Assembly (NCBI RefSeq): GCF_048403405.1
Contig: NZ_CP183129.1
Length of the DNA: 64,000 nucleotides
Source of the DNA: Escherichia coli
GTDB taxonomy: Bacteria; Pseudomonadota; Gammaproteobacteria; Enterobacterales; Enterobacteriaceae
Reading direction: 5' to 3' (one strand)
In this document: positions 41,517 through 41,897 of the stretch, piece by piece
Position numbering within the stretch: the stretch's first letter is position 1
Layout: the number at the start of each line of letters is the position of its first letter
Position numbers and translations under genes: made by a program
Notes under the pieces: model-generated
What the model saw: only the letters and a program-made list of their open reading frames with translations
Database searches by the model: none
What the model was told of the DNA's origin: nothing

Positions 41517-41897
41517 AATGAATCCTTTTTCGATTTATGAGAATAAATACTCATTTAAGGGTGAAAACATTTTGCCTGCAAATGATTATCAGGAAATATA
41601 ACATTATCGAAGTATTCAAATTAACAACTATTAAATAATATTAAACATTTTTAACGTAAACATTAAGAATATTCATCTTGTTATCTGTCTGTATTTTAAC
41701 CAGAATTAAATCAGTATTAGATGCCGTATGAATATCTCGAAATGTTGCTGTGTATCACATACAAATCATCACCGCAGGACCATAGTATTTACATAAGATT
41801 TGTCCCCCCGGAGGTAGTCATCGCAGCAATCGAGTAAATTAGCTTCACCACGGTATATTGTTTCCGTAGAATACCCATAATTATAAGAGAGGTTGTT

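Follow-up and report, generated by a model that had tools for sequence, protein, structure and literature searches.

The long AT-rich gap between yffB and ypfM of Escherichia coli is probably a divergent transcription-control region with two unlike halves

Why should ypfM, a gene of only 19 codons, be preceded by such a long stretch of non-coding DNA? An earlier note on the 64,000-nucleotide stretch of E. coli DNA analyzed here (the window) had raised this question and suggested that the gap upstream of ypfM might accommodate a small RNA, extra small ORFs or a complex regulatory region for the divergent yffB-dapE transcript. The yffB-ypfM gap (41517-41897) is 381 bp long and is bounded by two start codons, that of yffB at 41514-41516 on the minus strand and the ATG of ypfM from 41898; the K-12 version is 380 bp long because the C-run at 41804-41809 is shorter by one C there. 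It is indeed the longest intergenic gap annotated in the window, ahead of the 324-bp purM-upp gap (gene coordinates for this ranking were taken from a reference strain that is 99.4% identical), and it is highly AT-rich, as described, with 31% G+C vs 52% for the window and minima of 23.5% and 18% at the 200-bp and 100-bp scales, respectively. The A/T tracts noticed earlier are present as five homopolymer runs of at least 4 nt, but they are not in excess over the composition (6.8 ± 2.3 in shuffled sequences), and a 10-11 bp periodicity of A-tracts, indicative of phasing or curvature, was not found in the gap. A repeat search of the gap returned short chance pairs only, and no feature is annotated inside it in K-12 or among the matches listed across 5,425 E. 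coli genomes.

From the comparisons described below, we consider it quite probable that the gap controls divergent transcription, that its two halves are unlike and that it does not harbor another gene. The ypfM side, from about 41733 to 41897, is 165 bp long, and the module that it represents spans 162-178 bp (165.7 ± 3.6) across 58 genomes. The yffB side (41517-41732, ~216 bp) is poorly conserved and varies between 181 and 695 bp among genera, while the whole gap spans 349-1044 bp among the loci compared. The gap is long, therefore, because a length-constrained ypfM control module adjoins fast-evolving yffB upstream DNA; a gap of 381 bp may look out of proportion to ypfM, as had been remarked, but it is plainly explained by a ypfM module of ~165 bp plus a yffB upstream region of ~216 bp. 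The useful outcome is that the length of the gap is no sign of a hidden gene and that its two-module organization is resolved. The strongest AT-richness is confined to 41532-41732 (22-28% G+C), and in its extreme form it is Escherichia-specific, with 24-29% G+C there, whereas other genera have a median of 35%.

The ypfM gene (41898-41957, plus strand; MIERELGNWKDFIEVMLRK) has 19 codons and the good ribosome-binding site attributed to it, a Shine-Dalgarno sequence, AAGAGAGG, at 41885-41892, the 5’ UTR and coding sequence together covering 41880-41957. Of 80 loci, 73 encode the YpfM peptide upstream of yffB, as far out as Yersinia and Dickeya, and a Pfam family, PF28148 (YpfM), is on record for the Salmonella gene. 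A scan of the gap for promoters and terminators returned a single promoter-like site (2.5 expected), which we call P1, and no terminator-like site on either strand. P1 (41844-41879, plus strand) is a genuine sigma70 promoter of ypfM, as established by the consensus scan, a mapped transcription start site (TSS), RpoD SELEX, sigma70 ChIP-seq and conservation. It consists of a -35 hexamer TTCACC (41844-41849), a 17-bp spacer, a -10 hexamer TAGAAT (41867-41872) and a +1 at the A of 41879; the hexamers agree with the consensus at 9 of 12 positions, and both are kept across genera. The TSS at 2588907 in the K-12 table of Kim 2012 maps to 41879 and gives a 5’ UTR of 19 nt, an RpoD SELEX promoter of Shimada 2014 carries hexamers identical to those of P1, and published sigma70 ChIP-seq peaks at 2588887 and 2588903 lie on P1, where the sigma70 peak rises ~2.5-fold anaerobically (322 vs 817). 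Downstream of the coding sequence, the terminator scan marked a 3’ UTR (41958-42051, plus strand) with an internal hairpin at 41981-42005 and a bidirectional intrinsic terminator at 42016-42051, which is common to ypfM and acrD; the fold z-score of this 3’ UTR is -2.8. Initiation at P1 gives an RNA of ~173 nt in E. coli with a 19-nt leader.

Upstream of P1, the alignment of 41 genomes revealed a conserved footprint, AATCAnAGnnATyGGTTAAAT (41819-41839), with a mean identity of 0.66 vs 0.32 for the 32 bp before it. The footprint contains a partial palindrome, AATCA-N3-TGATT, centered ~53 bp upstream of the P1 start. Per-species folds of 41790-41840 yielded no structure common to the species, and a candidate pairing between TTGCTGTG (41745-41752) and CGCAGCAA (41822-41829) was rejected because the complementarity does not covary in Citrobacter.

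At the left border of the gap, yffB leads the genes yffB-dapE-ypfN and encodes an ArsC-family reductase of 118 aa (41160-41516, minus strand), identified from the ORF list, the annotation in K-12 and strain WP4-S18, and Pfam (PF03960, E = 2.6e-22). A conserved leader segment, 41517-41531, holds the yffB Shine-Dalgarno sequence AAAGGA (41523-41528, minus strand) and has a mean identity to E. coli of 0.69 among 38 non-Escherichia genomes, compared with 0.36-0.40 in the flanking non-coding DNA. From a motif search and the alignment to Salmonella, we infer that yffB-dapE-ypfN is read from an extended -10 element, TGTTATATT, running from 41603 to 41595 on the minus strand, one of just two matches to TGnTAnnnT on that strand of the gap. 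The element aligns with an identical one in Salmonella, located 7 nt upstream of position -97, which is the 5’ end of a Salmonella yffB::gfp fusion whose leader is repressed by the Hfq-dependent sRNA SdsR (PMC5137417) and which we took to be the yffB TSS. The predicted +1 in E. coli is near 41588, with a 5’ UTR of ~72 nt; the table of Kim 2012 contains no E. coli TSS for yffB. Another yffB promoter, TTCATA-16-TTTAAT (41732 to 41705), was predicted by Shimada 2014, but it is kept only in Escherichia and Citrobacter, and we preferred the Salmonella-aligned TGTTATATT. The yffB side would accordingly be read into a short AT-rich leader behind the extended -10, and in Salmonella this leader is a target of SdsR repression.

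The AT-rich spacer between the divergent promoters (41604-41732), delimited by composition and conservation, has 22% G+C, a mean identity of 0.36 and a length that varies between genera. This spacer is probably a binding platform for nucleoid proteins. Published H-NS ChIP-chip regions map to 41617-40827 and 42539-41809 and flank, rather than cover, the most AT-rich core (about 41618-41808), a published IHF ChIP-chip region covers about 41752-40905, and the RpoD SELEX data of Shimada 2014 flag the spacer ‘HNS’. Both yffB and dapE are included in Table S11 of Myers 2013, and their O2-dependent change was seen only in the strain without hns and stpA. Low G+C and in vivo occupancy, which together mark H-NS-bound AT-rich regulatory DNA, are both found on the yffB side. 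The yffB side resembles the H-NS/IHF-bound AT-rich divergent regions of E. coli in having 22-28% G+C under or beside H-NS and IHF ChIP regions and in that yffB-dapE expression shifts only without hns and stpA. It differs from them in being core-genome DNA rather than a horizontally acquired island, in that its H-NS regions flank the core, and in that its AT-richness is limited to the Escherichia lineage. No IHF core motif was found in the gap. From the published ChIP and expression tables, H-NS and IHF would probably bind the ~130 bp of fast-evolving AT-rich DNA between the divergent promoters and so damp or condition both of them.

The ypfM side contains a further element, which accounts for the little that is new here. 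A distal conserved block (41733-41765, plus strand), with the consensus TaTTtCaaAATaTTGCtgT..gTCACAt.AAatt in the cross-genus alignment and the core TTGC-N6-TCACA at 41745-41759, has a mean identity of 0.70 vs 0.35 in its flanks. It is located 135-151 nt from the ypfM ATG in 59 loci, independent of a gap length that ranges from 349 to 1044 bp, and frame-by-frame checks across genomes found no coding in it on either strand. Exactly 20-21 nt past TCACA, the window and all 59 block-bearing loci have the hexamer [C/G]ATA[G/T]T, while the intervening sequence is variable. We propose this hexamer, CATAGT at 41781-41786 (plus strand) in the window, as the -10 of a second ypfM promoter, P2, on the grounds of its invariant spacing and its conservation (mean identity 0.92). 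A conserved ‘cA’ follows 7 nt downstream of nATAkT and places the predicted +1 at 41793, and in clades whose block has diverged, the place of the hexamer is taken by TAAAAT, TAAGAT or GATAAT, with the offset unchanged. A -35 hexamer is not recognizable. Judged by its sequence, the distal element looks like an activator-dependent promoter.

In class II activator-dependent sigma70 promoters, for example galP1, the activator site is centered at -41.5 and overlaps the -35 position. The 16-bp site at 41744-41759 has its center at 41751.5, which is 41.5 bp upstream of the predicted start at 41793, and therefore has class II promoter geometry. The proposed P2 is like the class II promoters of the CRP/FNR family in having a -10 without a -35, a perfect TCACA half-site, 21 nt from this to the -10, and a spacing kept in 60 genomes. 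It is unlike them in its upstream half, which is an invariant TTGC instead of GTGA (CRP) or TTGA (FNR), and the left half changes again in the Cedecea/Buttiauxella clade. In the proposed arrangement, an activator bound at TTGC-N6-TCACA would overlap the -35 position and start transcription at 41793 from the -10 CATAGT, and the ypfM side would be a 165-bp module, fixed in length across the Enterobacteriaceae, that drives the ypfM small mRNA from P1 and P2.

We compared the block with the consensus sequences of candidate factors for P2. The right half, TCACA(T), is perfect for CRP, but the left half, an invariant (A/G)TTGC, matches TGTGA at only 2 of 5 positions and is not convincing, and the literature searched, in which ypfM appears in the main text, contained no link between CRP and ypfM. 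The FNR consensus (TTGAT-N4-ATCAA) is matched at 8 of 10 positions in E. coli but at only 6-7 of 10 in most genera, and the tables of Myers 2013 contain no FNR ChIP peak named ypfM or yffB. Among the alternative sigma factors, sigma54 lacks its GG at -24, sigmaE lacks GGAACTT, and the sigma32-type -10, CCCCATAT, suits Leclercia but is poor in E. coli; minor-sigma SELEX lists show no peak in the spacer. A marbox in the distal block reaches at best 8-10 of 14 positions, none of the CytR octamer, the OmpR, PhoB and CreB direct repeats, ArcA and PhoP was convincing there, and neither was IHF, whose core motif is absent from the gap. The regulator of P2 might be an activator of the MarA type or else a member of the CRP/FNR family, either CRP itself or the orphan YeiL, that recognizes an unusual site made up of one FNR-like and one CRP-like half.

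The lengths of the RNAs bear on the choice between the two starts. The P2 transcript is predicted to be ~260 nt long in E. coli, with a leader of ~105 nt, and 227 nt long in Salmonella, where the predicted P1 transcript is 146 nt; the STnc250/ypfM Northern band of ~220 nt reported for Salmonella (Sittka 2008, PMC2515195) therefore fits a start at P2. A second ypfM-directed TSS of Kim 2012, at 41768 by the block, and a Salmonella MarA ChIP-seq peak, which our coordinate inference puts roughly on the block, also speak for P2. Tentatively, and with the doubts on our side still outweighing, we read 41745-41786 (TTGC-N6-TCACA, 21 nt, CATAGT) as a genuine P2 that is switched on by a regulator not previously tied to ypfM and that gives the long-leader, ~220-260-nt, Hfq-bound ypfM/STnc250 RNA. 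If P2 is true, it would open a first way into the regulation of a 19-aa protein that is conserved widely, and naming the P2 regulator could show when the conserved YpfM is made. New detail is limited to this conserved, little-studied putative promoter and its regulator, and the significance is small beyond the local annotation of core E. coli DNA; the main features, namely the ypfM small mRNA and its promoter, the sigma70, H-NS and IHF occupancy and the SdsR-targeted Salmonella yffB leader, were already in genome-scale data. The suggestion of a complex regulatory region for yffB-dapE thus holds as far as regulation is concerned, given two ypfM-directed promoter modules (one with a mapped TSS), the footprint, the yffB extended -10 and the sigma70, H-NS and IHF occupancy, but most of the conserved content serves ypfM.

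Alternatively, 41733-41786 might not be a promoter but an operator or enhancer-like site that acts on P1, yffB or both; the candidates to bind it are IHF, a protein of the MarA/SoxS/Rob type and a response regulator that recognizes TTGC and TCAC at their 10-bp spacing. This reading gains from the table of Kim 2012, in which a TSS at the predicted P2 start, 41793, is absent; the one listed in its place, 25 nt upstream at 41768, on the 3’ edge of the block, is ypfM-directed but weak, with the lowest count value (2), and a good -10 was not found for it. In addition, TTGC (41745) and TCAC (41755) have a spacing of exactly 10 bp, as do the direct repeats read by OmpR/PhoB-type regulators, a published MarA ChIP-seq peak of Salmonella maps roughly onto the block by our own coordinate inference, and the IHF ChIP-chip region extends to about 41752. 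On the other hand, our own inspection found no match to the marbox consensus, the gap has no IHF core motif, and the ~220-nt Salmonella RNA fits a start at P2. The invariant 20-21-nt spacing leads to a hexamer that always has A2 and T6 and is followed by ‘cA’ 7 nt on, which is a -10/start signature; an operator would not need these, and they therefore count against it. We regard an operator as unlikely, though as an alternative to be taken seriously.

The remaining readings would place a further product or an RNA device in the gap, and all have a slim chance. A small regulatory RNA with a gene of its own, on one strand or the other, might have been missed in a gap that is this long, that contains many -10-like hexamers in AT-rich DNA and the weak extra 5’ end at 41768 (Kim 2012), and at whose Salmonella counterpart an Hfq-bound RNA was recovered. 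That RNA, STnc250, is the ypfM small mRNA itself, 4-fold enriched in Hfq co-IP (Sittka 2008, PMC2515195), and corresponds to the ypfM 3’ UTR plus the 3’ part of the coding sequence. An Rfam search of 40900-42400 at E values up to 10 returned only STnc250 (RF01409) and terminator look-alikes, and the STnc250 match (41937-42056; 36.9 bits, under the 42-bit gathering score; E = 3.6e-5; full 94-position model) is located outside the gap. The locus shares with STnc250/ypfM the acrD/yffB spacer, the strand, the terminator and the encoded 19-aa YpfM; it differs from what a small RNA in the gap would be in that the match is downstream of the gap and the RNA is an mRNA, not a non-coding sRNA, and the Escherichia 3’ UTR has ~26 additional nt, including the hairpin at 41981-42005. 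Moreover, the gap has no terminator-like hairpin on either strand, neither the leader of yffB nor the long one of ypfM folds better than shuffles (z = +0.76 and +1.31, respectively), no structure is common to the species downstream of the block, the strongly conserved non-coding segments are all promoter-like, and the K-12 annotation is empty here. The small RNA that had been suggested for the gap is therefore not supported, and we rate one having been missed as very improbable. Further small proteins, for example from a 38-aa ORF (41721-41837), a 22-aa ORF (41728-41796) or the 27- and 33-aa ORFs near yffB, have hardly a better chance. E. coli continues to yield new small proteins, 13 ORFs of at least 8 aa start in the gap, and tblastn with the 22-aa ORF, which runs across the conserved block, gave matches in 38 genomes. 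However, these matches arise because the block is conserved at the DNA level, a Shine-Dalgarno sequence is missing from all 13 ORFs, and tblastn against other genera found no homologues of the AT-rich ones outside Escherichia. Nor are the ORFs over the block kept in other genera, where either the start or the stop is lost: of 58 genomes, 22 have no start codon in the frame over the block, whose length ranges from 8 to 82 aa, and the minus-strand frame from the conserved ATG gives unrelated sequences of 3-36 aa. The proposed extra small ORFs were accordingly abandoned. Least probable of all is that the AT-rich region upstream of yffB acts on yffB-dapE in cis as a structured leader, such as a riboswitch or an attenuator. 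The dapE gene belongs to lysine/diaminopimelate synthesis, a pathway that is under riboswitch control elsewhere, and ~180 nt separate the farthest predicted yffB promoter (that of Shimada, -10 at ~41705) from the start codon. Yet Rfam gave no match for such a leader even at E = 10, its fold z-score is the +0.76 quoted above, its mean identity is just 0.36-0.40, and it contains no terminator. Judged by the start of the Salmonella fusion and by the aligned extended -10, the leader would be no longer than ~72-97 nt, and the post-transcriptional control that is known for it acts in trans, through the sRNA SdsR. Judged by sequence and conservation, the gap would probably give rise to no further transcripts or translation.

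Other E. coli small-protein genes, such as mgtS/yneM (STnc570) and azuC, also have long, regulated upstream regions. Like these, ypfM is a tiny ORF whose mRNA is short, abundant and associated with Hfq and has a promoter and a terminator to itself, and genes of the mgtS/yneM (STnc570) type came from the same screens as ypfM (Sittka 2008, PMC2515195). We also noticed an inverted repeat, ATGAG-N8-CTCAT (ATGAGAATAAATACTCAT), at 41537-41554 in the predicted yffB 5’ UTR, where it may, we infer, have a function. In the pairwise alignment of E. coli and Salmonella, it corresponds to GAAATTCGAATAAATAAT, a computationally predicted Fur box of Salmonella, where yffB is up 2.6-fold in a fur mutant (PMC3212961).

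The gap between yffB and ypfM is real and was correctly described in the earlier note, but it is ordinary: a regulatory region between divergent genes, most components of which already appear in public genome-scale data. What we add is limited to a conserved distal promoter-like element of ypfM, defined phylogenetically. The suggestion that the gap might hold a complex regulatory region was borne out by the ypfM promoter (P1), this distal element, the yffB side, and published sigma70, H-NS and IHF data. From position 1803 on, the window is ~99.4% identical to strain WP4-S18-ESBL-07 and represents E. 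coli chromosome with the gene order yfgI ... hyf ... dapA ... dapE-yffB / ypfM / acrD ... eut. Since yffB occupies 41160-41516 on the minus strand and the 19-codon ypfM 41898-41957 on the plus strand, the gap spans 41517-41897, or 381 bp. With gene coordinates taken from the near-identical reference strain, it exceeds every other annotated intergenic gap of the window in length (purM-upp, the comparison, has 324 bp), and its AT-richness was confirmed, with 31% G+C in a window of 52% and a 200-bp minimum of 23.5%. The "many A/T tracts" did not hold up: we counted 5 homopolymer tracts versus 6.8 +/- 2.3 predicted by composition, and the homopolymer A/T tracts in the gap showed no phasing. Among complete E. 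coli genomes, 5,425 of 5,426 contain the gap; in MG1655, W3110 and the other matches listed, nothing is annotated under it. In K-12 it measures 380 bp, as the C-run at 41804-41809 is shorter by one base (C5 instead of C6); the region downstream of this run is rich in indels between genera. In a source-tracking study, the ypfM intergenic region ranks in the top five of the loci that are informative for E. coli from rat, turkey and wastewater.

To compare the gap across species, we fetched 80 loci around yffB homologues, one genome per species. In 73 loci ypfM was identified, and its peptide is near-invariant as far as Yersinia, Dickeya and an Erwinia-like species. In the alignment of 41 gaps of similar length, conservation is confined to discrete blocks, which are listed here with their mean identity to E. 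coli across 38 non-Escherichia genomes: the yffB Shine-Dalgarno sequence and leader (41517-41531; 0.69), a distal block (41733-41765; 0.70), a hexamer (41781-41786; 0.92), a footprint (41819-41839; 0.66), P1 (41844-41879; 0.63) and the ypfM leader (41880-41897; 0.89), while the rest of the gap shows 0.32-0.40. The gap consists of two modules with a boundary at ~41733. The ypfM-side module measures 162-178 bp (mean 165.7, sd 3.6) in 58 genomes from many genera, and the yffB-side module varies from 181 to 695 bp in length and from 24% to 48% in G+C, with values of 24-29% only in Escherichia. The "excess" length of the gap is thus explained by its two parts, of which the ypfM control module is constrained and the yffB upstream region plastic. 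In Mangrovibacter, Entomohabitans and Yersinia nurmii (L066, L073, L074 and others among the fetched loci), the gap is enlarged to 864-1543 bp; as far as the additional DNA could be placed, all of it is on the yffB side.

P1 is the ypfM promoter, as its hexamers, mapped +1 at 41879, SELEX, ChIP and conservation are concordant. For K-12, Kim et al. 2012 give two starts directed at ypfM, 2588907 (19-nt leader) and 2589017 (129-nt leader), and a start within yffB that is assigned to dapE, with none for yffB itself; using the 51-nt sequences printed in their table, we placed these starts at 41879, 41768 and 41426. In the RpoD-holoenzyme SELEX of Shimada et al. 2014, the ypfM<>yffB spacer is listed as a site with the flag 'HNS', and the promoters TTCACC-17-TAGAAT for ypfM and TTCATA-16-TTTAAT for yffB are predicted. 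The sigma70 ChIP-seq peaks of Myers et al. 2013 at 2588887 and 2588903 fall on P1 and rise significantly under anaerobic conditions (322 vs 817). The P1 -35 element is degraded in Salmonella and Citrobacter (TTCTCT or CTTCTT). Between the -10 element and +1 lies TACCCAT (41872-41878), a perfect match to the NarL/NarP heptamer, TACYYMT; the match is not strictly kept across genera (TACGCAT, TGCGCAT).

The distal block is the sole part of the gap without an explanation in published annotation. Its consensus is TaTTtCaaAATaTTGCtgT..gTCACAt.AAatt, and in 59 loci the distance between its core, TTGC-N6-TCACA, and the ypfM ATG is 135-151 nt, whatever the gap length; this constant distance indicates that the block belongs to ypfM. 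In all 59 loci, a hexamer, [C/G]ATA[G/T]T, is separated from the TCACA upstream of it by exactly 20-21 nt, whose sequence otherwise varies, and a conserved 'cA' lies 7 nt past the hexamer. Cedecea, Dryocola and Buttiauxella, in which the block has diverged, carry TAAAAT, TAAGAT or GATAAT at the same offset. Judged by its sequence, the fixed-spacing hexamer, with A2 and T6 constant and CA after 7 nt, looks like a -10 element and a start site, with no -35 or extended -10 element present. With CATAGT (41781-41786) as the -10 element, transcription would start at 41793, and the 16-bp core (41744-41759) would be centred at -41.5. The 21 nt that separate TCACA from this -10 element match the spacing in class II CRP-family promoters exactly. 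Because of the position at -41.5 and the 21-nt class II spacing, we refer to the distal element as P2, a putative activator-dependent second ypfM promoter.

A genuine P2 under the control of an unrecognised activator, which would be modestly interesting if true, is a tentative reading that we hold at somewhat less than even odds, and an unlikely alternative is that the distal block acts as an operator and not as a promoter. The sizes in Salmonella (L084) lend P2 indirect support, as the predicted transcripts are 227 nt from P2 and 146 nt from P1, and the published Northern signal is ~220 nt for STnc250, an sRNA candidate from the acrD/yffB spacer that corresponds to the small ypfM mRNA and was enriched 4-fold in Hfq co-immunoprecipitation (Sittka et al. 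2008, PMC2515195). The P2 reading is opposed or limited by the start table of Kim et al. 2012, from which 41793 is absent; the start at 41768, at the 3' edge of the distal block and 25 nt upstream of 41793, has the lowest count value (2), and we found no credible -10 element for it; this 5' end may be noise, a processed end or an alternative start. P2 is also opposed or limited by the left half-site of the core, which resembles neither that of CRP nor that of FNR, by the lack of an FNR peak named ypfM or yffB in the tables of Myers et al. 2013, and by the lack of any minor-sigma SELEX peak listed in the spacer. A MarA ChIP-seq peak has been reported at ypfM<>yffB in Salmonella; in SL1344 its centre (L084 ~2220) is displaced towards ypfM by 56 bp from the weak marbox-like site given for it (L084 2283-2269), and by its coordinates the peak appears to fall on the P2 block rather than on that site. 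A clade with divergent YpfM (MIDTELGHWKDFIEQMLRK; L036, L050 and L058) lacks the TTGC-N6-TCACA block; its region ~60-140 nt upstream of ypfM has a direct repeat resembling that of ArcA, TGTTAAAAAATGTTTAAA, and then a near-consensus promoter, TTGACT-N17-TATTAAT, at a similar distance; thus, a distal ypfM promoter seems to recur with differing control sequences.

On the yffB side, a Salmonella yffB::gfp fusion repressed by the sRNA SdsR spans -97 to +75 (PMC5137417), and we take -97 as the yffB start. An extended -10 element, TGTTATATT, lies 7 nt upstream of it, and in the E. coli/Salmonella pairwise alignment its identical counterpart is the nonamer at 41603 to 41595. Only one other motif of this kind occurs on the same strand within the gap. 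We therefore predict an E. coli yffB start near 41588 with a ~72-nt leader. An inverted repeat in this leader (41537-41554) aligns with the computationally predicted Fur box of Salmonella, where a fur mutation de-represses yffB by 2.6-fold (PMC3212961). The yffB promoter predicted by Shimada et al. (41732 to 41705) is kept only in Escherichia and Citrobacter. The 129 bp at 41604-41732 have 22% G+C and no conserved sequence, and are overlapped or flanked by the H-NS ChIP-chip regions (42539-41809 and 41617-40827) and the IHF region (41752-40905) of Myers et al. 2013, who also list yffB (2.2-fold) and dapE (2.4-fold) as responding to O2 only when both hns and stpA are missing. Taken together, the features of this stretch point to a nucleoid-protein platform and not a gene. 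The minus-strand start at 41426, within the yffB coding sequence, has the locus's highest count value (8) in Kim et al. 2012, and a strong sigma70 ChIP-seq peak (2589585) of Myers et al. 2013 maps to ~41200, near the yffB 3' end; dapE may be transcribed largely from yffB-internal promoters.

The other two suggestions of the earlier note, a small RNA and extra small ORFs, appear unsupported at the sequence level. The gap contains no Rfam family even at E = 10 and no terminator-like hairpin on either strand, the yffB leader (z = +0.76) and the long ypfM leader (z = +1.31) fold no better than shuffles, and no structure is common to the folds made species by species downstream of P2. None of the 13 ORFs of at least 8 aa that start in the gap has a Shine-Dalgarno sequence, and for the AT-rich ones no counterpart exists in other genera. 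Those with tblastn matches are the ones overlapping the conserved block, where the plus-strand frame lacks its start in 22 of 58 genomes and the minus-strand frame from a conserved ATG gives unrelated sequences of 3-36 aa. The Rfam STnc250 match (41937-42056) lies outside the gap and covers the 3' part of ypfM and its terminator; it scores 36.9 bits, under the gathering score of 42, because of an insertion in the Escherichia 3' UTR. Compared with Salmonella and Citrobacter, this UTR (41958-42015) has ~26 nt more in Escherichia, where it carries an extra hairpin (41981-42005), which is also terminator-like on the minus strand.

At its left edge (1-1802), the window does not carry guaB-guaA, unlike the otherwise collinear reference strain, and encodes phage-type lysis proteins: the ORF at 353-1213 has a glycoside hydrolase 19 (chitinase class I-like) domain, and the one at 1210-1692 specifies a DUF2514 protein. 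A prophage or island adjoining yfgI probably ends here.
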